From positions 27,880 through 91,879 of the forward strand of contig JAWCMA010000001.1 of NCBI GenBank assembly GCA_038850285.1: DNA of 64,000 bases, written 5' to 3'. A program made the translations under genes and the position numbers. Of this stretch, positions 4,939 through 20,421 are shown piece by piece (position 1 is the first letter of the stretch; the number at the start of each line of letters is the position of its first letter). The notes beneath the pieces were generated by a model. That model made no database searches, was not told the DNA's origin, and saw only the letters and a program-made list of their open reading frames with translations. The DNA comes from Methanocellales archaeon. Its GTDB lineage: Archaea > Halobacteriota > JAWCLZ01.

Positions 4939-7683
4939 TTATTTCTTTGCGGCTAGCTTTACAACCTCAACCGTGCCATCGGGTTTCTTGGAAATACCAA
5001 GTCCAGCTGGTTTGAGGAGTGCTAGGAATTCTTTCATTGGAACTTGATCTCGATCATATCTAGCCTTTGCCTCCGCCAGTGGCACGATCTTTAGCTTGCC
5101 ATCGGAGATCTCAAGGGCAAGTCCCATTTTCTCCAACGATTCAACAATGCCTTTAGCTGGGAAGAATTTTTCAACAGGTGGAGGCACTTCTTTGGGTACA
5201 AGTCCAAGTCTCTTCTCCAAATATGGCCTCAATTTTTCATTCTCAGCTTTAATCCTCTCCACGCCGAGTTCCTTTATAACTCTATCCAGTTCCTTAATTG
5301 TATTAGCATAGACAGTGCTCATTGCAGCTGAGATCCACCGCCTCTGCATCCTCTCAGGGGTTAAGCCCTGCTTCACCAATTCTTCTTTAATCTTATCGAA
5401 CCTAGGCCCTGAGATCTTATTTCCTGATACATAGTGGCAGGTGCCAATTTCACATCCACCCATGAAGAAAGCTCCAGCTCCTCGCCTGAAGGCTTCATAG
5501 ATGAAGTCTCGGTCCACTCTTCCTGAGCACATTACTCTTATTACCCTTGCTGAAGTGGGCTGCTGAATTCGACTCACCCCTGCTAAGTCAGCTGCGCCAT
5601 AGGTACACCAATTGCAGATTATAGCAACTATAGTCTGCTCTGGATTGCGAGCAGTGGCTTCTCTTATTTGAGCCATGATTTGCGCGTCTGTGAAATGCAT
5701 TTGCTGCATTGCACTGCTAGGGCAATCGGCCACGCAGGTGCCGCAGCCATGGCATTGAGCTGGATTGATCTTCGCAAGCTTCTTCTCCCTACCTGGTACC
5801 TCTATCAGCGATATCGCTTTATATGCACATCTCTCCACGCACATACCGCAGCCTATGCAGAGTTTATCGTCCACAACTGCAACTATGGGATCGATCTTCC
5901 ATTTATCTTGAGACATAACTCTGGTTGCTCTAGATGCAGCGCCGTGTGCCTGCGACACGCTATAGGGAATATCTTTCAAGCCCTGGCAGCAGCCAGCTAA
6001 AAATATACCATCTGTGGCAAAGTCAATTGGCTTGAGTTTGGGGTGTGATTCTATGAAGAACCCGTGCTCGTCGGTTGGTACATTTAAGATCGCGCCGAGT
6101 TCACTTGAATCTGGATTGGGAACGCTTGCCTCTGCTAGAACAACCATTTCAACCTCGAGTTCCACAGGCTGATTTATGAAGGTATCAAATACCTTTATTA
6201 ATAGATTCTTATTTGGAAGTTCGATTATCTCAGAAGGCCTTCCGCGTACGAAGGTTATACCTTGATCGCGTGCTTTAATATAGAAGTCCTCGAAGCCCTT
6301 GAAGATGGTTCGCATATCCATATATACTATATAAATCTCAGCATCGGGCCAGTGATCTTTCCAGAGGTTCGCCAGTTTTAAGGTGAACATGCAGCAGAAG
6401 TTACTACAATACGGCTTGGCTATGCCCTTGGGATCCATTTCCCTGCTGCCAACGCAGGTTATGAATGCCACTTTCTTAGGTTCTTTTCCATCTGAAGCTC
6501 TAACCACGTGCCCCTCAAGCGGTCCAGAAGCACAAATCAATCGCTCGAGCTCAAGCGAGGTAATGACATTATCATACCTACCATAGCCATATTCTTTTTT
6601 CTGAGTGGCATCCCACATCGAATAGCCAGTGGCAACCACGATTGTGCCAACCTCGAGCTCAATGATTTCATCCTGCATGGTGAAGTCAATTGCCATGCGG
6701 TCTCCGCATGCTTCCACGCATTTGAAGCACTTGATGCAGTGCTTCAAGTCAATGGTATAGGTATTTGGAACAGCCTGCGGTAGAGGTATATATATTGCTT
6801 TTCTCGGGCCAAGGTTTACATCATATTCATTTGGCACTTCCACTGGGCAAGCTTTTGCACAATCGCCACATCCAGTGCATTTTTCCTTCCTCACATATTT
6901 GGCTTTTTTAAGAACTTCTACTTTGAAGTTACCTATGAAGCCGCTGACTTTTTTAACCTCAGAATAAGCCAGCAATTCAATGTTAGGGTGCCGCCCCACT
7001 TCAACCATTTTAGGTCCTTCTATGCAGATGGAGCAATCTAGGGTTGGGAAGGTTTTATCCAACTGAGCCATTCTGCCGCCAATTGATGGTTCCTTCTCAA
7101 CTAGGTATACTTTAAAGCCGTGGTCAGCGATATCAAGCGCTGCGTGTATACCTGCGACCCCTCCGCCTATTACCAGTGCTTTCTTGGTGATTGGCACGTA
7201 GAATGGCTCGAGTGGCTGGAGATATCTTGCCTTTGCAACTGCCATTCTAACGTAATCCTTCGCTTTCTCAGTTGCCTCCTCTTTATTAGCATAGTGAATC
7301 CAAGAGCAGAATTCTCTGACATTTGCCATTTCAAATAGAAATGGATTCAATCCTGCATCTTGACAGGTTTTTCTAAATGTTGGCTCATGCATCCTAGGGG
7401 AGCAAGCTGCTACTACAACGCGATTCAATTTATGCTCCTTAATTGCTTTCCTTATTTCAGCCTGCCCGACATCTGCACAAGTATATTTATTGGTTTGAAC
7501 CCAAACTACATCTGGTAGGGTTCTTGCATAAGCAGCAACTGCTTCCACATCGACTGTGCCAGCGATATTTGATCCGCAGTAGCAGGGGAATACGCCTATT
7601 CTAGGCTCAGTGATCTCTATGCCACCAGGTCCAATGCCAGCTACTTTTTCCTTTTCTTTAGCTTCAGCTTTAACCTCAGTCAC
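4939..7683 (-). CDS. hdrA: HdrA-like flavoprotein fused to an MvhD-like domain, with an extra C-terminal region of about 150 aa
   Basis: 914 aa. It contains the HdrA N-terminal 4-Cys domain (FPCYCGSNIAG..C..C), an FAD Rossmann fold (VIGGGVAGIHAA), an inserted ferredoxin (CTGCGDCAKACP..CIKCFKCVEACGD), a C-terminal 2×[4Fe-4S] ferredoxin (CIGCGMCVERC..CHGCGTCVADCP) and an MvhD-like segment (IVAIICNWCTYGAADLAGVS...VMCSGRVD...GGCEIGTCHY), followed by about 150 aa that I cannot assign. It overlaps the upstream polyferredoxin gene by 4 nt. Confidence 0.85.
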   Translation of the reverse strand: MTEVKAEAKEKEKVAGIGPGGIEITEPRIGVFPCYCGSNIAGTVDVEAVAAYARTLPDVVWVQTNKYTCADVGQAEIRKAIKEHKLNRVVVAACSPRMHEPTFRKTCQDAGLNPFLFEMANVREFCSWIHYANKEEATEKAKDYVRMAVAKARYLQPLEPFYVPITKKALVIGGGVAGIHAALDIADHGFKVYLVEKEPSIGGRMAQLDKTFPTLDCSICIEGPKMVEVGRHPNIELLAYSEVKKVSGFIGNFKVEVLKKAKYVRKEKCTGCGDCAKACPVEVPNEYDVNLGPRKAIYIPLPQAVPNTYTIDLKHCIKCFKCVEACGDRMAIDFTMQDEIIELEVGTIVVATGYSMWDATQKKEYGYGRYDNVITSLELERLICASGPLEGHVVRASDGKEPKKVAFITCVGSREMDPKGIAKPYCSNFCCMFTLKLANLWKDHWPDAEIYIVYMDMRTIFKGFEDFYIKARDQGITFVRGRPSEIIELPNKNLLIKVFDTFINQPVELEVEMVVLAEASVPNPDSSELGAILNVPTDEHGFFIESHPKLKPIDFATDGIFLAGCCQGLKDIPYSVSQAHGAASRATRVMSQDKWKIDPIVAVVDDKLCIGCGMCVERCAYKAISLIEVPGREKKLAKINPAQCHGCGTCVADCPSSAMQQMHFTDAQIMAQIREATARNPEQTIVAIICNWCTYGAADLAGVSRIQQPTSARVIRVMCSGRVDRDFIYEAFRRGAGAFFMGGCEIGTCHYVSGNKISGPRFDKIKEELVKQGLTPERMQRRWISAAMSTVYANTIKELDRVIKELGVERIKAENEKLRPYLEKRLGLVPKEVPPPVEKFFPAKGIVESLEKMGLALEISDGKLKIVPLAEAKARYDRDQVPMKEFLALLKPAGLGISKKPDGTVEVVKLAAKK

Positions 7684-8720
7684 TTACCACCACTACCCCT
7701 TATTTTTAATAATGTGTTAATCGTTCTATTATATCCTTCTGCTTGTAATTCCTTGGCATAAGCCCTAGTGCTAGTTAGATTGCCTAGAGCTCTAAACCAA
7801 GTGCCTGAATGCGCTTTTGTATGTCGAATTCTTTCCCTAGTTATTGTAATAGCGCCATTTGGGCATGCATTCTTACACGCGCCACATAATATGCAGTATT
7901 CACTTCGATAGACTAATGGTGAACCATGGAGTGCCCCGCAGGGACATGCATCTATGCAAACTGTGCAAACTTCAGGACACTTAGCTGTGTCTATGGTTAA
8001 GATGCCCTCGAAAGGAGTGGTAACAGCAAGTACTCCATTTGGACATACACCCTCGCACCAGCCACAGGTAACGCATTTATCTAGATCTACTTTAACCAAC
8101 TTTTCTCTTCGCTTCTCTCTATTGATAGCAATCGCACCCTCTGGGCATTTTTCAAGCGCTTTGAGGGTTTCATCGGTGAATTTATCATAGTTTATGTAAA
8201 CTCTATCCGTGATTTCAACGCCTGGAGCTTCGCATTTTCTGCATAAATTGCAGAGTTCATCGTTGATCTGGACATCTAAAATTTCAATTTCTCTCTCTCC
8301 ATCTTCATACTTCAAAGCTTCAAATTTGCATGTTTCTTGACAGAGAGTGCAAGTTGGATCGCATTTCTCTTGATTTACATATACCTCTCGAATTAACTTT
8401 GGAAAGTCATCCTGCAGCACAGGTGGAGATGGCTTACCGTCAATTCTGAACTCAATCGCGTGATATGGACAGACTTGCGAGCAAACTCCGCAGAAAGTGC
8501 ATTTATTTTCATCGATAACTGCCTTATTCTTCTTAATCAACTTGCCATCTTTGATCTCCGCGCCACTGATATTAATTGCCTCCTCAGGACAGGAGGTTTT
8601 GCATACCTCGCAGCCTTGACATTTAAGTAAATTATGAATTACCTCATGCAAGCGGAAATACATCTTTCGCTTAATTATTTGCTGCTCGTCTTTAACAAGC
8701 CTAATAGGTTTTCCTCTCAT
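7680..8720 (-). CDS. Polyferredoxin (multi-[4Fe-4S], MvhB/FwdF-like)
   Basis: 346 aa with about 7–8 CxxCxxCxxxCP-type motifs (CQGCEVCKTSCP, CTFCGVCSQVCP, CVTCGWCEGVCP, CILCGACKNACP and others). It is translationally coupled to hdrA-mvhD. Confidence 0.8.
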   Translation of the reverse strand: MRGKPIRLVKDEQQIIKRKMYFRLHEVIHNLLKCQGCEVCKTSCPEEAINISGAEIKDGKLIKKNKAVIDENKCTFCGVCSQVCPYHAIEFRIDGKPSPPVLQDDFPKLIREVYVNQEKCDPTCTLCQETCKFEALKYEDGEREIEILDVQINDELCNLCRKCEAPGVEITDRVYINYDKFTDETLKALEKCPEGAIAINREKRREKLVKVDLDKCVTCGWCEGVCPNGVLAVTTPFEGILTIDTAKCPEVCTVCIDACPCGALHGSPLVYRSEYCILCGACKNACPNGAITITRERIRHTKAHSGTWFRALGNLTSTRAYAKELQAEGYNRTINTLLKIRGSGGK

Positions 8721-8888
8721 GCAAACACCAGAATCTATTGATTAGCCATTGATCTTGATATACATCCATATAAATTAATTGATTTTTTTCAAATAGCAAG
8801 CCTTAATTAAACTATGAATAAAATCGATTCAAAAAGAAAATTGTATAAGCGTTGCGGTTAATTGATAAAAACTTGGGAGCGTTTATTG

Positions 8889-9947
8889 ATGACTGAAAAA
8901 AAGATACTCTATGCTGATTTGACTAAGAATAGCTTGAGTGTAAAAGTGGAGAAAATCGAGGCAATAGGCGGAGCTGCATTGGCATCGAGATTATTAAAGC
9001 AAGATTCATTGATATTTGCAACAGGAGTATTCTCAGGAACCCTTATACCTGCGGGAAGCGTTGTAGGTGTTTTCTCTCCAAATGGAGAGCATTACTTCCC
9101 AGGTAATTTTGGCACTCAAATGAGGCTAGCTGGTTTAGATGCCATTGTAATCAGCGGTAGAGCTGAGAGGCCAGTTGCACTTTGGATAGATGATGATGGC
9201 ATTGATATAGAGCGTGCTGATAAACTCTGGGGCCTAGATTGCTATGAAACAGTTGAGAGAATTTTAAAGGATGCAAATGACCCTACAATTGGAGTAGCAG
9301 TGATAGGCCCGGCTGGCGAGGAGCAGGTTAAATTTGCAAGCATTTACTGCGATGACCAGCTTGATATAAGTGGACTTGGCTATGCAATGGGCGCTAAACT
9401 TTTGAAAGCAGTTATTGTGAGGGGATCGAATGATGTTAAAGTAGCGCATGGAGATGATTTGATAAAGGCTATTTCAAAGAAAGAAGTGCCAAGTAAAATC
9501 AGAAAGGATTTAATTGCTAAAAAACTTCCCAAGAATAGCTCTTGCTTGCAGTGTAATATTGCATGTCGAGAGGTATTCAAGGCAAATGGATCGATAACAG
9601 CCATATTCCCAGAGGAAGCTGAAGCATTCAACGGGTACAAGGCTGAAGAAGTGATTGAAGCAATTGCTCTATGCAAGCGACTTGGACTTAATCCAATTTA
9701 CACTGGCGCTCTAGCTAGGGCAGTGAAGGCTGAGAAACTGAGTGAATTCATAAAGAGCCTTGCTGTTAAATCAGAAGCAGAAAAGGCGATAAAGGCAGTT
9801 AACATAAAAATAGAAAAACCATTGCCTGGAAAACTTGATAAATTATTTAATTCTCTAATGATATGCAAGCGCGCACCTTATGATGGAGACGAGCTTGCAA
9901 AGCTATACAAATTTGTGACTGGCGAAACGATGCCAAGGGAAGGGTGA
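8889..9947 (+). CDS. Truncated aldehyde:ferredoxin oxidoreductase-like protein: AOR domain 1 plus a CxxCxxxC motif, with the tungstopterin-binding domains missing (BamB-like position)
   Basis: The likely start is MTEKKILYADL at 8889; the ORF-track start at 8862 is a TTG. Residues 1-200 align with AOR domain 1 (AGLDAIVISGRAERPVALWI, IGPAGEEQVKFASI, GAKLLKAVIVRGS). The motif CLQCNIAC resembles the AOR [4Fe-4S] ligand motif. The protein is only about 350 aa, against about 600 aa for a full AOR. Confidence 0.65.
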   Translation: MTEKKILYADLTKNSLSVKVEKIEAIGGAALASRLLKQDSLIFATGVFSGTLIPAGSVVGVFSPNGEHYFPGNFGTQMRLAGLDAIVISGRAERPVALWIDDDGIDIERADKLWGLDCYETVERILKDANDPTIGVAVIGPAGEEQVKFASIYCDDQLDISGLGYAMGAKLLKAVIVRGSNDVKVAHGDDLIKAISKKEVPSKIRKDLIAKKLPKNSSCLQCNIACREVFKANGSITAIFPEEAEAFNGYKAEEVIEAIALCKRLGLNPIYTGALARAVKAEKLSEFIKSLAVKSEAEKAIKAVNIKIEKPLPGKLDKLFNSLMICKRAPYDGDELAKLYKFVTGETMPREG

Positions 9948-9952
9948 TAAAT

Positions 9953-10411
9953 ATGGGGACTAAATTTTTAGCTGCAGATCCAGCGCTTTGCATTGGTTGC
10001 CACACTTGCGAGCTGGTCTGCTCATATAAAAAAGAAAATGTTTTCAATCCCAAGAAAGCGCGAATTAAAGCAGTTAGCATACCTCCGCTTACAAGTGCTC
10101 AAGCGTGCAGACTTTGCAAACCAGCACCTTGCTTGATAAAATGCCCTAGAAGAGCAATTACTCAAGATGAGAAAACTCTGGTTATAAAAATAAATGAAGA
10201 TAAATGCGATGGCTGTGGTTGGTGCGTTGAAGCTTGTGAATTTGGAGCCATGTCCATGCATCTTGATAGAAAAAAGGCATTTGTCTGCGACCTATGCGAT
10301 GGCAAGCCAGCTTGCTTGGAATTCTGCCCAACTAAAGCAATAGATTTTGTTAGCGAGGAAGAACTAGCACGGAAGGTTCAATCAGCGTTCAGTATAGTAA
10401 AGGGTGTTTAA
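9953..10411 (+). CDS. Four-cluster [4Fe-4S] ferredoxin (BamC-like position)
   Basis: Motifs CIGCHTCELVC, CRLCKPAPCLIKCP, CDGCGWCVEACEF and CDLCDGKPACLEFCP. The start is an ATG at 9953, overlapping the upstream stop. Confidence 0.75.
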   Translation: MGTKFLAADPALCIGCHTCELVCSYKKENVFNPKKARIKAVSIPPLTSAQACRLCKPAPCLIKCPRRAITQDEKTLVIKINEDKCDGCGWCVEACEFGAMSMHLDRKKAFVCDLCDGKPACLEFCPTKAIDFVSEEELARKVQSAFSIVKGV

Positions 10412-10413
10412 CA

Positions 10414-11556
10414 TTGATCTCTAGGGAATTTATTAAAAAGATCTCAGCTATCCCAGGCGGCGAGCAAGCAAAGATGTGCTATAAATGTGCTGAGTGTACT
10501 TCAGTTTGCCCAGTTGCAAAGGAAACCAACTATGAGTTCAAGCCCCATGTCTTGATGGGGATGATCAACTACGGCTTAAAAGACTTAATACTCCCGTATC
10601 TCTGGTACTGCATAACTTGTGGTAAATGTACAGTGCTATGCCCTCAAGGTATTAATATTCAAGAAGTGGTTAGAAGCGCTAGGACTCAAGCAGTCCAGGT
10701 ACCATATGCCCATAAGGGTATCTTTCACACCATGCATAGAATAATGGCTAGAGGAAAGGCTCCTGATAGAACAAAATGGTTTGAAGAAGCTGGGATTGAT
10801 TTAAATAAAAAAGGAGACAAGCTTTTTTTCGTGAGCTGCATTCCACTGTATGAGCTGTTCTTCACGGATTTGAACTTCGATGCAAAGGAAATGGTGAGAA
10901 GCAGTGTGAAGATCTTGGAAAAATTGAATATAAACTATCAAATATTTGCTGATGAACGCTGCTGCGGTCACGATGTTTTTTGGGCTGGTGACTTTGAAAC
11001 ATTCAAGGAATTTGCAAATGTAAATGCAAAGCTATTCAAGGAACGTGGAGTGAAGGAGATAATTACATTTTGCCCAGAGTGCTATCGAACTTTTCTTTTA
11101 GATTATCCAAGGGTAATAAAGGGCTTTGACATAAAAGTTAAACATATCACTGAAGTAATAGCAGAAGGCATAAATAGCGGTAAAATCGAAATCGCTAGGT
11201 CTAACGAAATACTCACTTATCAAGATCCCTGCCGCCTCGGCAGGCATTGTGGTATTTACGATTCTCCAAGGATTATTATGGAGAAGCTTGGTAAATTTGT
11301 TGAGATGAAGAATACCAAGGAAAAAGCAGACTGCTGTGGGATAAGTGCTTGGCTTAGCTGCGAGCCTGAGACCAAGATATATAGGGAGCAGCGGTTGAGG
11401 GAAGCGAGGGAAACAGGTGCGCAAACATTGGTTACTGCTTGCCCCCACTGCTTGATTCATTTCTCTTGTTCAATCTGCGAGGACCAAAAGATACCAGTGC
11501 AGCATAACATCAAAGTTAAAGATATAGTTACACTTGTAGGGAGGCAGATGAAATGA
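10414..11556 (+). CDS. HdrD-like Fe-S protein: two [4Fe-4S] motifs plus two CCG domains (BamD-like position)
   Basis: 380 aa. The N-terminus has CAECTSVCP and CITCGKCTVLCP. The CCG signatures are ERCCGHDVFW...FCPECY and DPCRLGRHCG...DCCGISAW...CPHC. The TTG start is uncertain. Confidence 0.75.
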   Translation: MISREFIKKISAIPGGEQAKMCYKCAECTSVCPVAKETNYEFKPHVLMGMINYGLKDLILPYLWYCITCGKCTVLCPQGINIQEVVRSARTQAVQVPYAHKGIFHTMHRIMARGKAPDRTKWFEEAGIDLNKKGDKLFFVSCIPLYELFFTDLNFDAKEMVRSSVKILEKLNINYQIFADERCCGHDVFWAGDFETFKEFANVNAKLFKERGVKEIITFCPECYRTFLLDYPRVIKGFDIKVKHITEVIAEGINSGKIEIARSNEILTYQDPCRLGRHCGIYDSPRIIMEKLGKFVEMKNTKEKADCCGISAWLSCEPETKIYREQRLREARETGAQTLVTACPHCLIHFSCSICEDQKIPVQHNIKVKDIVTLVGRQMK

Positions 11557-14516
11557 AGGGATCGGTATTAGTTATAGGTGGAGGCATAGCTGGAATGGTT
11601 GCCTCTTTAGACCTAGCTGACATTGGCTATAAAGTTTATTTAGTCGAGAAACTCCCGAGCATAGGCGGGAGGATGGCTCAGCTTGATAAAACCATGCCCA
11701 CGCTAGATTGCTCAATGTGCATTGAAGCACCTAGAATGGTGGAGGTAGCGAGGCATCCAAATATAGAGTTGCTGACCTATGCTGAGGTGAAGCGAGTTAA
11801 AGGTAAACTTGGGGATTTCAAAGTCGAGGTAATTAAGAAGTCTCGATATGTTGATAAAACCAAATGCACTGGATGTGGCGACTGCGCTCAAGCCTGTCCA
11901 GTGGAAGTGCCAAATGAATACGATGCTAATACTAAATCGCGAAAGGCAATATATATTCCATTTCCCCAAGCTGTTCCAAATACATATACCATTGATATGA
12001 AGCACTGCATCAAATGCTTCAAATGCGTTGAAGCATGTGGAGATAGAATGGCAATTGATTTTACAATGCAGGATGAGATAGTGGAGTTAAACGTTGGTGC
12101 TATAATCGTAGCCACTGGATTTGATATGTACGATCCCTCGGTGCTGCGCAATTATGGCTATGGGGTCTTGGAAAATGTATTAACAGGACTGGAATATGAG
12201 CGCCTATTAAATGCTGCAGGTCCAACTGAGGGGGTTATCTTAAGGCAAGATGGCAAGCATCCTAAGCATATTGCATTCATTCAATGCGTTGGAAGTAGGG
12301 ATAGCAAGCACAAGAAATACTGCTCGCGCTTCTGCTGCGTTTACGCTGTGAAGGAAGCAATTTTAACTAAGGAACACGATCCTGAGGCTAAATGCACAAT
12401 ATTTTACATGGACATGAGAGCTCATGGAAAAGGACAGGAAGAGTTCTACAGGCGTGCAAAAGAGGAATTTGGCATTGAGTTTATCAGGAGCAAGCCCGCG
12501 TATATAGAGCAAATTGGGGATAAACTGCGAATTACTTACGAGGACACTAGTTCAAGTGAAGTTAGAACAATGGAAGTTGACATGGTTGTGTTGGCTAACG
12601 CAATAGTACCAAGCGTACCAACCTCGCTTAACATCGAAGTAGATGCAGATGGCTTTATCTCAGAGAAACTCGGAGATCCCTCGACCACGAATATCCCAGG
12701 GATATATGCAGCTGGAGTTTCACAAGCGCCAAGAGATATATCTGATTCAGTTGCAATGGGCAGCGCAGCAGCTGGTAAGGTATCTGCGGATTTGAGAGAA
12801 GCCAGAGGTACTGAGGTAGTGAAAAAAATACTACCGCCTGAGAGAGATGTAACTCGTGAACCACTTAGGATTGGCGTTTTCCTATGTCACTGCGGTATAA
12901 ACATCGCTGGCGTCGTTGATATGAAAGCACTTGAGGAATACTCTAGAACTCTACCTAATGTTGTATTTGTCCAACGTAATCTCTACACCTGCTCTGAAGA
13001 GGGCAATCGCCAGATTAGGGATGCCATTAAAGAATATAATTTGAATCGCGTTGTAGTAGCAGCTTGCACTCCGCGAACTCATGAAGCACTCTTTAGGGAA
13101 ACATGCATGCAAGCTGGATTGAATCCCTATTTACTTGAATTCGCAAGCACTAGAGAAATGTGTTCTTGGGTGCATATGCGCCAGCCTAAGGAGGCAACTG
13201 AGAAGGCTAAGGATATAGTGAGAATGGCAGTCGCTAGAGCAGCTTTGCTTGAGCCTCAGAAGCCAGGTGTAATTCCAGTCACGCCAAAGGTAGTGATAAT
13301 CGGCGGTGGCATAGCTGGCATGCAAGCAGCCTTGGGATGCGCGAGAAATGGTTTTCAAACCTATCTCATTGAGAAAAGCGCTGAACTCGGTGGAATGCTG
13401 GCTAAGCTTCGCTCTATGGTTCCCACTTATCTTGATCCAAGGGAAATTGTGAGGGAGAAAATTGCAGCAGTGAGGCAAAATCCATTGATAAAAGTTTATA
13501 CCAATACCGAGGTCAAGAATATCTCTGGCTTCATAGGAAACTTCATAGTGGAACTCTCAAATGGCGAAAAAATTGAAGCTGGGGCTATAGTGGTTGCCAC
13601 AGGTGGAAAGGAGTGGAAGCCTGATGTATATGACTATGGCAAAAATCCAAATGTTATGACCCAGCTTGAGTTTGAAGAAGCTCTTTTAAAGGGAGAAATA
13701 AAGCCAGGTGAGAGAATTGTTATGATACAATGCGTGGGATCTAGAGATGAAAAAAGGCCTTATTGCTCGAGGATTTGCTGCGGCGTTGCAGTTAAAAATG
13801 CTCTAGAGCTCAAAAAGCGATATCCTGAGAACCCAGTTTATATATTATATAATGATATGCGAACCCACGCTAAGGGAACGGAGGAACTATATCTAGAAGC
13901 TCGGGAGAAGGGAGTGGAATTTATTAGATTTGAACTTGAGAATAGACCAACTGTTAGAGGCAATAAGGTAACGGTCTTTGATAGTTTCCTGCAAACCGAG
14001 TTTGATATACCAGCGGATAAGATAGTGCTATCCAGCGCTATAGTGCCTGATGAAAATGCACCTCAGCTTGCGAAGATGCTTAAAGTGCCTCTTGATGTTA
14101 ATGGCTTCTTCCTTGAGGCTCACCTCAAACTCAGACCTGTTGACTTCGCCACTGATGGAATATTCGTAGCTGGTGTAGCACAGAGTCCAAAGGAGTATTA
14201 TGATTCAATTTCACAGGCAGATGCAGTGGTGGCTAGAGTGGCTAGATTACTAGCTAAGCCTGAGTTTGAAACAGAAGCTATTACTTCTATAGCTATGGAG
14301 GAACTCTGCATTGGCTGTGCTCGCTGCGTTGCATGCTGCCCATATACAGCTATTACCATGGTGATGAAGAACGGGAGATATGTTTCAAGTGTTAATCAAG
14401 CCCTCTGCAAAGGCTGCGGTACTTGCGTGGCTGAATGTCCAACTGGTGCTATGAAGGCAAGGCACTTCACCACTGAGCAGATTACAAAAATGATAGATGC
14501 AGCATTGGAGGAGTGA
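11553..14516 (+). CDS. Tandem (double-FAD-domain) HdrA-like flavoprotein (BamE-like position)
   Basis: 987 aa. Order: FAD domain 1 (VIGGGIAGMVAS) with an inserted ferredoxin, then an internal HdrA N-terminal-type 4-Cys domain (VFLCHCGINIAG), then FAD domain 2 (IIGGGIAGMQAA), then a C-terminal 2×[4Fe-4S] (CIGCARCVACCP..CKGCGTCVAECP). Its start is an ATGA overlap with the upstream gene. Confidence 0.85.
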   Translation: MKGSVLVIGGGIAGMVASLDLADIGYKVYLVEKLPSIGGRMAQLDKTMPTLDCSMCIEAPRMVEVARHPNIELLTYAEVKRVKGKLGDFKVEVIKKSRYVDKTKCTGCGDCAQACPVEVPNEYDANTKSRKAIYIPFPQAVPNTYTIDMKHCIKCFKCVEACGDRMAIDFTMQDEIVELNVGAIIVATGFDMYDPSVLRNYGYGVLENVLTGLEYERLLNAAGPTEGVILRQDGKHPKHIAFIQCVGSRDSKHKKYCSRFCCVYAVKEAILTKEHDPEAKCTIFYMDMRAHGKGQEEFYRRAKEEFGIEFIRSKPAYIEQIGDKLRITYEDTSSSEVRTMEVDMVVLANAIVPSVPTSLNIEVDADGFISEKLGDPSTTNIPGIYAAGVSQAPRDISDSVAMGSAAAGKVSADLREARGTEVVKKILPPERDVTREPLRIGVFLCHCGINIAGVVDMKALEEYSRTLPNVVFVQRNLYTCSEEGNRQIRDAIKEYNLNRVVVAACTPRTHEALFRETCMQAGLNPYLLEFASTREMCSWVHMRQPKEATEKAKDIVRMAVARAALLEPQKPGVIPVTPKVVIIGGGIAGMQAALGCARNGFQTYLIEKSAELGGMLAKLRSMVPTYLDPREIVREKIAAVRQNPLIKVYTNTEVKNISGFIGNFIVELSNGEKIEAGAIVVATGGKEWKPDVYDYGKNPNVMTQLEFEEALLKGEIKPGERIVMIQCVGSRDEKRPYCSRICCGVAVKNALELKKRYPENPVYILYNDMRTHAKGTEELYLEAREKGVEFIRFELENRPTVRGNKVTVFDSFLQTEFDIPADKIVLSSAIVPDENAPQLAKMLKVPLDVNGFFLEAHLKLRPVDFATDGIFVAGVAQSPKEYYDSISQADAVVARVARLLAKPEFETEAITSIAMEELCIGCARCVACCPYTAITMVMKNGRYVSSVNQALCKGCGTCVAECPTGAMKARHFTTEQITKMIDAALEE

Positions 14517-14519
14517 GAA

Positions 14520-14939
14520 ATGAGGGAGCCGAAGATAATTGGATTGCTGTGTAACTGGTGTTCCTATGCAGGTGCGGATCTTGCTGGGGTAAGTAGATTT
14601 CAATATCCCCCTAATATACGCGTGATCAGAGTAATGTGCACGGGTAGGGTTGATCCCTATTTCGTGATCCATGCATTTGAGAGGGGCGCTGATGGCGTTC
14701 TAGTAAGTGGCTGCCACATTGGCGATTGTCACTATTTAAAGGGCAATGAATTCATGGTTCAGCGCATGGAAAACCTCGCAAAGGCATTGCCTATGATAGG
14801 TATAAATCCAAAGCGCTTCATGTATACCTTCGTCTCAGCTGCAGAGGGCAAGCGCTTCTCTGAAGTTGTAACTCAATTCGTAAAGCAAGTGAAGGAAGCC
14901 ATGCTTGAGGATGAAAAAGCTAGGGCAGCGGGTTCATGA
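14520..14939 (+). CDS. mvhD: MvhD-like [2Fe-2S] protein (methyl-viologen-reducing hydrogenase delta subunit family; BamF-like position)
   Basis: 139 aa with the motif IIGLLCNWCSYAGADLAGVS..VIRVMCTGRVD..SGCHIGDCHY. Confidence 0.85.
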   Translation: MREPKIIGLLCNWCSYAGADLAGVSRFQYPPNIRVIRVMCTGRVDPYFVIHAFERGADGVLVSGCHIGDCHYLKGNEFMVQRMENLAKALPMIGINPKRFMYTFVSAAEGKRFSEVVTQFVKQVKEAMLEDEKARAAGS

Positions 14940-18098: not shown

Positions 18099-18517
18099 AG
18101 GTAAAATACCCTAGATTAACAGTCGACGTGGTAATTCTATATAGAAATAAATTTGTATTCATCAAGCGGGGAAATGAGCCATACAGGGGTAGATATGCCC
18201 TTCCAGGCGGCTTCGTTGAAGCTGGGGAGAGAGTGGAAGAAGCAGCTATTCGCGAGGCGAGAGAAGAAACTGGCCTTGATATTAGACTTATAAAACTTTT
18301 AGGGGTATACTCCGATCCAGATCGCGATCCACGCGGCCACGTGGTTAGCATTTGCTATCTAGCTGAAGGCACTGGAGAACTTAAACCAAGCACTGATGCT
18401 TGCGAGGTTTTGACTTGCTCTCTTGATGCTGCTATGAAGTTAAACCTCGCGTTTGACCACGATAAAATTTTGAGAGACGCCATAGCTGAGCTTCGTAGAA
18501 TAGGGAAATATTTTTAA
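18095..18517 (+). CDS. NUDIX hydrolase
   Basis: Nudix box GGFVEAGERVEEAAIREAREETGL. Confidence 0.85.
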   Translation: MKVKYPRLTVDVVILYRNKFVFIKRGNEPYRGRYALPGGFVEAGERVEEAAIREAREETGLDIRLIKLLGVYSDPDRDPRGHVVSICYLAEGTGELKPSTDACEVLTCSLDAAMKLNLAFDHDKILRDAIAELRRIGKYF

Positions 18518-18635
18518 ATATTGAGGGATGAAATAAATTGGGGTTGGTAATACTAATTTAAGGGGTGATGCTTGTCCCTATGTAGGACTATCTATTACCA
18601 GCCTTGAAATTCGACGGTGATGGGGGTGTTCGAAA

Positions 18636-18983
18636 ATGGGCATCCATATTGTCGTTGAATTTCTGGGCGTTGACCCGGAAAAACTCTCTAGAGTTGAAAA
18701 TGTAAAGCGAATTTTAGAAAGAGTATTGATTAATTCTAAGTTGAATGTGGTTGCAAATGTTTTTCATCAATTCTCGCCACATGGGGTTTCTGGAGTTTTT
18801 CTACTTCGCGAATCTCACCTCAGCATTCATACTTGGCCAGAGTATGAATATGCAGCCATAGATATCTTCACATGCGGTAGAGAGGAAGATGCACTTGAAG
18901 CACTATACTTACTTATAAAAGAGTTCCAACCCAAGGAAGTTAAAAAGGAAATAATCAGGAGGGAAGTTTCATGGAAAAAATAA
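18636..18983 (+). CDS. speH: S-adenosylmethionine decarboxylase proenzyme (pyruvoyl-dependent)
   Basis: 115 aa with the processing-site motif ESHLSIHTWPE. Confidence 0.85.
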   Translation: MGIHIVVEFLGVDPEKLSRVENVKRILERVLINSKLNVVANVFHQFSPHGVSGVFLLRESHLSIHTWPEYEYAAIDIFTCGREEDALEALYLLIKEFQPKEVKKEIIRREVSWKK

Positions 18984-20047
18984 GAGAATATATCTTAAAT
19001 GAATTAGCCACTTCTAATAAAAGCATCTGGGAACTCCTAGATAGCGCTTACTCGCCCTTAAAAGATTTCTTGAAGACTTTGAAAAATTTAATTGAAAATG
19101 AGGTGATTGCAAGTAATGGTAAAACTTTTTATTTAACTGAGAAAGGCAAACAAGAAGCTACATTAATTGCATTAAATCCATTTAAAAGTAATCTCTGCCA
19201 GTATTGCAATGGGAAGAGAATTGCCATTGAGGGGAAATTTAAGGAGATATTAAGTGAGTTTAAAGAAATAGTTAAAACCCGGCCCCTTGTGGATTTAAAT
19301 TTCTTCCAAGGCTATGCGATTGAGGAAGATGTAGTGAGAAGAGTAGCTTTAATGCATCACTATGGCGATTTACATCGCAAGGATCTCATTTTAATTGGCG
19401 ATGATGATCTATTAAGCATAGCTCTCTCTCTAACTCAACTTCCATCTAGAGTCGTTGTTTTAGATATAGATGAAAAACTAGGGGAATTCATAGCACGAGT
19501 AAGCAGGGAACATCGCTTTGATATTGAATTTAGAAAATACAATGTAGCTGATCCATTACCAAAGGATCTAGTGGGAAACTTCGATGTTTTCTCCTCAGAG
19601 CCACTTGAAACCCTAACAGGGCTTAAAGCATTTGTTGCAAGAGGCGTGAGTTGCTTAAGGGAAAATGGCGCGGGCTACTTCGGCTTAACCTTTCTCGAGG
19701 CATCTTTTAAAAAATGGCTAGCAATACAGAAAACCATAAGCAAGATGAACTGCGTGATGACAGATGTAATCCGGGGATTCACAGCTTATCCAATGAACTA
19801 TGAAAACTTGGATTATGAATCATTTGTAGAAAAACTTAAGGTTCCAATTGAAAGAAACCCTGGTATTAATTGGTATAAATCTGCATTAATAAGAGTTGAA
19901 GCACTAGGCAAGCCAAAGCTAGTCATACCACCGAATAAAAAATTGCGTGTGAAACTTGTTGATCCAATGGAAGACCTCACATATCCAAATAAAAAATGCG
20001 CCGGTCGGGATTCGAACCCGAGTTTGGGGCTTGGCAAGCCCCAGTGA
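18971..20047 (+). CDS. bpsA: Branched-chain polyamine synthase (N4-bis(aminopropyl)spermidine synthase, DUF43 family)
   Basis: 358 aa. The assignment rests on the DUF43/BpsA-like fold and its position immediately downstream of speH. The last ~51 nt of the CDS are antisense to tRNA-Gly. Confidence 0.65.
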   Translation: MEKIREYILNELATSNKSIWELLDSAYSPLKDFLKTLKNLIENEVIASNGKTFYLTEKGKQEATLIALNPFKSNLCQYCNGKRIAIEGKFKEILSEFKEIVKTRPLVDLNFFQGYAIEEDVVRRVALMHHYGDLHRKDLILIGDDDLLSIALSLTQLPSRVVVLDIDEKLGEFIARVSREHRFDIEFRKYNVADPLPKDLVGNFDVFSSEPLETLTGLKAFVARGVSCLRENGAGYFGLTFLEASFKKWLAIQKTISKMNCVMTDVIRGFTAYPMNYENLDYESFVEKLKVPIERNPGINWYKSALIRVEALGKPKLVIPPNKKLRVKLVDPMEDLTYPNKKCAGRDSNPSLGLGKPQ

Positions 20048-20068
20048 TAACCACTACACTACCGGCGC
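19997..20068 (-). tRNA. tRNA-Gly (GCC)
   Basis: The reverse complement GCGCCGGTAGTGTAGTGGTTATCACTGGGGCTTGCCAAGCCCCAAACTCGGGTTCGAATCCCGACCGGCGCA folds as a cloverleaf with anticodon loop TTGCCAA. CCA is not encoded. Confidence 0.9.
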
Positions 20069-20116
20069 ATGTATATTTTTAGCTGGTGAGGTATAAAAAT
20101 TTGATCTTCAATTGAA

Positions 20117-20189
20117 TGCCCTGACCCGGACTCGAACCGGGGACAGCCAGATCTTCAGTCTGGCGCTCTCCCAACTGAGCTATCAGGGC
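20117..20189 (-). tRNA. tRNA-Phe (GAA)
   Basis: The reverse complement GCCCTGATAGCTCAGTTGGGAGAGCGCCAGACTGAAGATCTGGCTGTCCCCGGTTCGAGTCCGGGTCAGGGCA has anticodon loop CTGAAGA. Confidence 0.9.
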
Positions 20190-20232
20190 ATTTTGAGTTT
20201 AGTTTGTAAATTTTAATTAATAAAGGTTTTGA

Positions 20233-20421
20233 CTAAGGCGTTGGCGCCTTTGGCCACATTCCAAAATAGGCATTTAATATCATGGCTGCTATGGCTGCAA
20301 CTATACAGGCGATGACCACTGCCCTTGGACTGATTCTTATTGCACTTTCCTCGGTTTCAAAGTAGCGCATTAAACCAGCGCTTGACATTAAACCGCTTAC
20401 TTTCTCCCCTTTCCTAGGCAT
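20233..20421 (-). CDS. secG: Preprotein translocase subunit Sec61-beta (archaeal SecG)
   Basis: 62 aa with SGLMSSAGLMRYFE followed by a C-terminal TM helix. Confidence 0.8.
   Translation of the reverse strand: MPRKGEKVSGLMSSAGLMRYFETEESAIRISPRAVVIACIVAAIAAMILNAYFGMWPKAPTP

Follow-up and report, generated by a model that had tools for sequence, protein, structure and literature searches.

A polyferredoxin–HdrA2 redox module with a lineage-specific C-terminal domain in a Methanocellales archaeon

We analysed 64,000 nucleotides of DNA from a Methanocellales archaeon (contig JAWCMA010000001.1, positions 27,880 to 91,879; this whole stretch is called the window below) and focused on two adjacent genes, pfd, which encodes a polyferredoxin, and hdrA2, which encodes a fusion of HdrA and MvhD. 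Together they make up an already known two-gene redox module, pfd–hdrA2 ("type Ia HdrA"). What sets this instance apart is a lineage-specific C-terminal domain added to the module; its genomic association with a divergent operon resembling the Bam genes is interesting, though not exclusive. We put the probability of our favoured reading at roughly 55%: the pair is a conserved bifurcating module, probably working with the divergent Bam-like operon, and the C-terminal tail is a protein-contact or assembly element. What the analysis showed directly is how the genes are built and which domains they encode, that the bifurcation residues are conserved, which gene order related loci share, that the tail is under purifying selection and that its fold is predicted with confidence.

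The pfd gene (7680..8720, minus strand) encodes a 346-aa protein related to FwdF/FmdF, with seven four-Cys [4Fe-4S] motifs. It is followed by hdrA2 (4939..7683, minus strand), which starts with GTG and encodes a type Ia HdrA of 914 aa. The stop codon of pfd and the start codon of hdrA2 overlap by 4 nt (GTGA), and the same hdrA2 start is found in P0001 and in the JGI gene calls. An earlier interpretation made from the letters alone, which we call the sequence-only reading, had described these genes as translationally coupled. Both open reading frames (ORFs) and the overlap were recovered in our analysis.

The in-frame HdrA–MvhD fusion was borne out as well. Pfam recognised Fer4 and FAD signatures in the 914-aa protein and FlpD (MvhD) at residues 685-807 (6e-39), while the NCBIfam model NF040770 (HdrA2) covers residues 28-810, or 775 of its 777 positions. 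In sequence matches to PDB chains, the solved HdrA (5odc_A) aligned to residues 25-674 (E 1.6e-249) and the solved MvhD (5odc_D) to residues 682-816 (E 1.9e-34). The HdrA core supported by the Pfam matches (residues 28-680; 5644..7602, minus strand) contains an N-terminal cluster domain, a FAD/TrxR-like domain, and inserted and C-terminal ferredoxin domains. The fused MvhD/FlpD part with a terminal helix follows (residues 681-826; 5206..5643, minus strand), its limits being given by the FlpD match, 5odc_D and the conserved helix.

K409 and E356 of the M. thermolithotrophicus HdrA are key residues in flavin-based bifurcation (PMC12054007). In the alignment to 5odc_A they correspond to K436 and E380 of the window protein, both invariant among 42 aligned homologues. 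Cys690, 693, 719, 744 and 749 of the MvhD part are invariant in the same alignment. The domain layout is that of type Ia, with a single TrxR-like FAD domain, cluster/ferredoxin domains and a C-terminal MvhD. Judged by these sequence features, the protein falls in type Ia HdrA, class HdrA2-1, of a published scheme whose survey lists 308 sequences for it (PMC12054007). Its nearest HdrA2 relatives outside the Methanocellales-labelled group are proteins of Bathyarchaeia, at ~60% identity. Separately, we noticed five HdrA-family proteins of ~1355 aa (P0004-P0008), 45% identical over 85% of the query, which carry matches to FlpD and additionally to pyridine-nucleotide-disulfide oxidoreductase and are larger fusions.

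The sequence-only reading had left ~150 residues after MvhD unassigned. This extension, however, begins at F762, which lies within MvhD, and a domain search with it matched residues 761-807 to Pfam FlpD. The boundary of MvhD/HdrA2 was placed at residue 810 by NF040770, at 816 by 5odc_D and at ~826 by comparison with Bathyarchaeia HdrA2 proteins, whose conserved C-terminal end is a helix of the type ERIKAENEKLRPxLE (ERIKAENEKLRP, residues 805-826). Hence some 65 residues (762-826) belong to MvhD and the terminal HdrA2 helix, and the unassigned part shrinks to the 88 aa at 827-914, which we refer to as the tail.

The tail consists of two parts. The first is a proline-rich linker (residues 827-837, GLVPKEVPPPV; 5173..5205, minus strand), which is the least conserved segment. 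The second is an orphan C-terminal domain (residues 838-914; 4942..5172, minus strand) predicted to be a tandem of two β-α-β-β units. Neither the domain nor the tail as a whole contains a single Cys or His; the net charge is +4 and the end is lysine-rich. In the full-length AlphaFold2 (AF2) model, residues 838-911 (74 aa) have a per-residue confidence (pLDDT) of 80-87, against <50 for residues 829-837 of the linker. The predicted elements are β840-842, α843-852, β855-860, β863-868, β880-882, α883-890, β895-899 and β905-909.

A short internal repeat had already been pointed out in this region. It is real and longer than described, a duplicated unit of ~33 residues: positions 842-874 align with 882-914 at a score of 39, compared with 20.9±4.4 for shuffled sequences, and only 12 of 5000 shuffles reach it. 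This alignment of the two halves keeps step with the predicted β-α-β-β elements. In the L008 orthologue the signal weakens, and 361 of 5000 shuffles reach the observed score.

We studied selection on the tail in the two closest genome records: L007, a Methanocellales archaeon (isolate JZ-2_201705_bins_257, 97% identity), and L008, an uncultured Methanocellales metagenome-assembled genome (87% identity). Compared with L007, the ratio of nonsynonymous to synonymous substitution rates (dN/dS) of the tail is 0.059 at a dS of ~0.60; it is 0.028 for the HdrA core. For the linker, dN/dS is 0.29. Synonymous sites are saturated at the distance of L008, and identity is still 82% for the tail, against 89% for the core and 58% for the linker. 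Four independent assemblies (L001, L002, L007 and L008) contain the tail. The low dN/dS, the identity to L008, this independent recovery and the AF2 fold together lead us to conclude that the tail is a selected, folded domain and not a product of read-through.

Its distribution is narrow. The only carriers we found are P0001, L007 and L008, all close Methanocellales-labelled relatives. Two metagenomic proteins with 67-68% identity (P0002 and P0003) have a different, low-complexity extension rich in K, A and P at the same position, and all Bathyarchaeia HdrA2 proteins end near residue 826. C-terminal extensions of HdrA2 were seen in just two lineages, those whose AOR-like protein is truncated. 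There is no paralogue of the tail in the window or in the 86 related loci of our synteny survey. In L073, a match that seemed to extend to residue 907 turned out to be an artefact of joined pfd and hdrA2 matches, the protein there being 807 aa long and tail-less. An origin from a neighbouring gene was also discarded, as the tail shows no relation to the protein encoded downstream, whether the one of 104 aa in L003 or that of 129 aa in the window.

Broader searches with the tail returned little. Pfam gave no match at E≤10. An exhaustive HMMER search of 1.84 billion representatives gave one marginal match, P0121 (E 1.6e-4), in a library of 50% identity cluster representatives, where tail-bearing HdrA2 proteins may hide behind tail-less ones. 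Word-index protein searches found nothing, whether the query was the tail itself or a profile of three tail sequences, but as they also missed the near-identical tail of P0001, we regard these results as false negatives and not as evidence of absence; negatives obtained with short queries are unreliable in this type of search. Two metagenome scans with tail peptides were likewise empty; they relied on exact 8-mers in a collection evidently without the JGI samples that hold P0001. As for P0121 itself, it is an uncharacterised, predicted lipoprotein of 306 aa without a Pfam family, which weakly resembles the tail and consists of four repeats of ~62 aa (GFxxDVxDGRxYVVP…EIPEKKIVTSIGxGPxGMTIRSD).

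The second member of the pair, the polyferredoxin, has 29 Cys residues, arranged in seven cluster motifs of four Cys each; one of these is split (CxxCxxC…CP) and the other six are contiguous. Of the 7–8 clusters proposed before, seven were found and an eighth was not recognised. Its best solved relatives are FwdF/FmdF proteins (9sw6_H, 1e-44; 5t5i_F, 4e-44; 7bkb_K, 6e-35), and it scores 159.9 bits with the NCBIfam FwdF model NF042909, whose cutoff is 375. By sequence, it is a relative of FwdF/FmdF and not a FwdF orthologue. No fwd or fmd genes were found near pfd, the neighbours being hdrA2 and the AOR-like operon. The polyferredoxins FmdF and MvhB pass low-potential electrons from the C-terminal ferredoxin domain of HdrA to Fmd, as shown structurally (PMC13580544). 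HdrA2-type enzymes are widespread, and the sole characterised one is that of Methanosarcina, encoded in an operon with a putative polyferredoxin (PMC5296606). In the L003 lineage we also observed a second polyferredoxin gene after hdrA2 (10365-11375, 336 aa) and, ~8 kb downstream, a separate hdrA (656 aa) with an HdrC-like gene (18112-20358).

On the opposite side of pfd lies the divergent Bam-like operon (8889..14939, plus strand). Pfam and NCBIfam identify its products as an AOR-like protein (352 aa), a BamC-like Fe-S protein, an HdrD-like CCG protein, a double HdrA of type II (987 aa) and an MvhD protein. This gene order is kept in L001, L002, L003, L007 and L008. The AOR-like gene most likely starts at ATG 8889, preceded by a GGGAG ribosome-binding site (8875-8879) and in line with the 352-aa JGI call in L001 (96% identical). 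With this start, the 168-nt divergent spacer reported before (8721-8888) is confirmed. In the HdrD-like protein (10414-11556), CCG domains are joined to an Fe-S domain of the HdrC type. The AOR/BamB-like protein (8889-9947, plus strand) retains AFOR_N and, of domain 2, only the CxxCxxxC portion; domain 3 and the fourth cluster Cys are missing. The gene is not split, as the next one overlaps its stop codon by 4 nt. The homologue in L003 is also short (381 aa), and the Bathyarchaeia neighbours are full-length (619 aa).

The spacer (8721..8888) carries both promoters. Read by eye, candidate archaeal TATA boxes are TTTATATG for pfd (8768-8775, minus strand) and TTGTATAAG for the AOR-like gene (8841-8849); we infer these assignments and treat them as candidates. 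Mean identity of the spacer in a four-genome alignment is 90%. Between the window and L008 it is 83% identical, as opposed to 37.5% at the 4-fold degenerate sites of hdrA2, so that the spacer is densely packed with constrained and presumably regulatory sequence. A 9-mer, TTAATTGAT, occurs twice in it (at 8775 and 8858, 83 nt apart). We make no claim for this repeat as a signal; by a rough estimate ~0.6 such repeats would be expected by chance, and in AT-rich sequence it may be just that.

Of the 86 loci in the synteny survey, 83 have a polyferredoxin gene immediately upstream of hdrA2. In the remaining three, the sequence ahead of hdrA2 measures <250 nt in two cases and ~1.2 kb in the other, L034. 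In M. acetivorans, hdrA2 (MA2868) likewise shares an operon with a putative polyferredoxin gene (MA2867), and hdrB2C2 is encoded elsewhere (PMC5296606). It follows from this precedent that the lack of hdrBC next to hdrA2 is normal for the class. The module being both known and so widely conserved, the view that the pair is a special partner of the Bam-like operon does not hold.

A divergent AOR-family gene lies ≤1.5 kb from pfd in 10 loci (L001, L002, L007 and L008 of the window's own clade, L003, four Bathyarchaeia and one Thorarchaeota). On the co-occurrence check proposed by the sequence-only reading, a link to the neighbouring operon is supported in part: AOR adjacency recurs in several lineages, and most pairs have no AOR neighbour. 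The L003 lineage (68% identity) retains the whole divergent array of AOR-like, Fe-S, HdrD, double HdrA and MvhD genes. In L018, one cluster brings pfd and hdrA2 together with hdrC-hdrB, a gene of the BamC type and a full-length AOR of 619 aa.

Some of these loci are worth describing in their own right. L018 (4937-13307, Bathyarchaeia) and L076 (3096-11029, Thorarchaeota) both hold hdrC-hdrB, a BamC-like Fe-S gene, a full-length divergent AOR and pfd-hdrA2, which amounts to a Bam-like gene set made of separate Hdr subunits; gene-by-gene verification with NCBIfam covered L018 only. L058 (WREI01000025.1), binned as 'Clostridiales bacterium', has AOR-family, BamC-like, pfd and HdrA2 genes and an HdrD/HdrC-like match on one strand. 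Its HdrA2 is ~58% identical to archaeal HdrA2, which may reflect horizontal transfer or a mis-binned archaeal contig.

On the favoured reading, the flavin of HdrA would split or merge electron pairs by flavin-based bifurcation, with the fused MvhD [2Fe-2S] domain as the medium-potential port. The 7-cluster FwdF-like polyferredoxin would be a low-potential wire running from the C-terminal ferredoxin domain of HdrA to a partner enzyme, by analogy with FmdF. We infer the direction of this electron flow, and likewise that the module binds the Bam-like proteins. In this hot-spring lineage, labelled Methanocellales, the module would be co-regulated with the operon for AOR-like, BamC, HdrD, type II HdrA and MvhD proteins and probably works with it; among the genes nearby, only that for the HdrD-like CCG protein offers a candidate for the high-potential partner. 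The recurring AOR adjacency suggests that pfd–HdrA2 may feed low-potential electrons to, or draw them from, tungsten/AOR-type enzymes, much as FmdF connects HdrA with Fmd. Type II HdrA is noted to share gene clusters with a second HdrA, of type I, and serial bifurcation has been proposed for them (PMC12054007); the arrangement of type II and type Ia proteins seen here would fit this idea.

The tail, a flexible Pro-rich linker with a duplicated β-α-β-β domain, would form a tethered protein–protein contact or an assembly element. Such a role is most likely, more so than a catalytic one, and a docking or targeting function, as suggested earlier, would fit its anatomy of a flexible linker and a small folded domain free of cofactor ligands. 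Being small, well predicted and lineage-restricted, the tail could serve as a handle for pull-down of the native complex.

Several observations weigh against this reading. The module does not depend on an AOR neighbour, since ~70 pfd–hdrA2 loci have none. In nine Bathyarchaeia loci (verified in L060), canonical hdrC and hdrB are found between pfd and hdrA2, so that the usual partner of the HdrA2 family is HdrBC. The Bam-like operon already owns an HdrA and an MvhD. The tail is absent from the AOR-paired Bathyarchaeia and Thorarchaeota loci, and in the L003 lineage its place is taken by a non-homologous tail of low complexity. When the tail was modelled alone, the secondary structure was the same, yet the pLDDT was 76.6 and only one of five AF2 models was confident. 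No significant sequence or fold match of the tail backs any particular function. Finally, the protein scores 1067.1 bits with NF040770, narrowly (by 33 bits) under the curated cutoff of 1100, the model having been tuned on Methanosarcinales.

The main rival explanation holds that the pair belongs to an ordinary HdrA2B2C2-type reductase of heterodisulfide or another disulfide, with hdrB2C2 outside the window, that the Bam-like adjacency reflects a shared redox regulon or chance, and that the tail does no more than lend stability to the protein of a thermophile or help it to oligomerise. The order pfd-hdrC-hdrB-hdrA2 in Bathyarchaeia speaks for it, as do the unlinked hdrB2C2 of M. acetivorans, the majority of loci without AOR and the HdrA and MvhD within the Bam-like operon; the absence of the tail from other AOR-adjacent lineages leaves it open. 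Indeed, the sequence-only reading had named a fusion of the operon to canonical hdrBC or mvhAG elsewhere in the genome as grounds for giving up its proposal, and for the family the nine Bathyarchaeia loci come close to that. The window genome could encode HdrBC outside the window. On the other side, the divergent AOR adjacency recurs in the clade of the window, the L003 lineage, four Bathyarchaeia and one Thorarchaeota locus, and conservation of the spacer far exceeds that of neutral sites. Additionally, no hdrBC was seen in the 64-kb window: among ORFs of ≥90 aa between 15.3 and 63.6 kb, none has a CCG, CxxCxxCxxxCP or NiFe-hydrogenase motif. The reported absence of HdrB, HdrC and hydrogenase subunits thus stands by motif, with the exception of the HdrD-like protein of the divergent operon, which has HdrC-type and CCG domains. 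All in all, we consider this rival possible, but on balance unlikely.

A bolder form of the favoured reading would make the tail a docking domain that tethers HdrA2–polyferredoxin to the complex of truncated AOR-like, BamC, HdrD, type II HdrA and MvhD proteins. This thermophilic relative of the Methanocellales would then possess a supercomplex for cascade bifurcation with two flavins, one in the type Ia and one in the type II HdrA. In such an assembly the tail might make up for the third domain that the AOR-like subunit lacks. This proposal strikes us as quite improbable.

Still more doubtful is a role of the tail in sensing or binding (as a domain related to the STN/N0 type, or as one for a ligand or nucleic acid), by which it would regulate the enzyme or its location. 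The net charge of +4, the lysine-rich end and the marginal HMMER match to the repeat lipoprotein would agree with it, but that protein is itself without a known domain, and Pfam offers nothing for the tail. STN/N0 domains do recur among the top weak fold matches, none of which has a significant score in any search, and the STN/secretin N0 fold has a similar order of predicted elements (β-α-β-β-α-β-β) with a pseudo-twofold duplication. These are domains of the bacterial envelope, and the tail sits on a cytoplasmic archaeal redox enzyme. We treat the modelled similarity as a lead only. A resemblance to AbrB/MazE or SPOR domains was also considered; no match supported it, and it was dropped.

Were the tail a read-through product without function, or an artefact of assembly or annotation, this would suit its narrow lineage and the end of other HdrA2 proteins near residue 826, but the independent assemblies, the dN/dS, the identity to L008 despite saturated synonymous sites and the confident AF2 fold already make this extremely improbable.

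Among other features of the region, an archaeal NMN adenylyltransferase gene lies downstream of the module, and in L002 (96% identical) a DNA polymerase D gene then follows. Further along the window, a mechanical ORF of 358 aa (18971-20047, plus strand) runs into a tRNA-Gly gene on the opposite strand (19996-20069, minus strand), which adjoins a tRNA-Phe gene (20116-20190).

BamBCDEFGHI is the class II benzoyl-CoA reductase of Geobacter metallireducens, in which BamGHI is the NADH input module. The neighbouring operon mirrors the BamB-C-D-E-F gene order and domain types, except that its BamB-like protein is truncated at 352 aa, and pfd–HdrA2 occupies the place in which one would look for an additional module for electron input or output. 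The sequence-only reading had accordingly compared the pair to BamGHI. A functional tie to the adjacent complex is plausible, given the conserved spacer and the recurring AOR adjacency, but homology is lacking: the Pfam/NCBIfam content of the pair comprises only Fer4, HdrA and FlpD, unlike the NuoEFG-like BamGHI. Any equivalence would be a functional analogy only.

Compared with FwdF, which has 349 aa and 8 motifs, the window polyferredoxin has 346 aa and 7. Both are built of multiple [4Fe-4S] ferredoxin modules, but the gene of the former is coupled to fwd and that of the latter to hdrA2.

One of the closest known systems is HdrA2 of M. acetivorans. The two share the HdrA core with a C-terminal MvhD, the polyferredoxin in the operon, hdrBC that is not adjacent, and the Lys and Glu at the FAD site. 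F420H2 use and heterodisulfide reduction, known for the Methanosarcina enzyme, are by analogy candidate activities here. The window protein differs in the extra 88-aa linker and domain after MvhD, and its module in the divergent pairing with an AOR-like/Bam-like operon. These findings leave the classification of the system unchanged: its core is the known module, with a modest elaboration.

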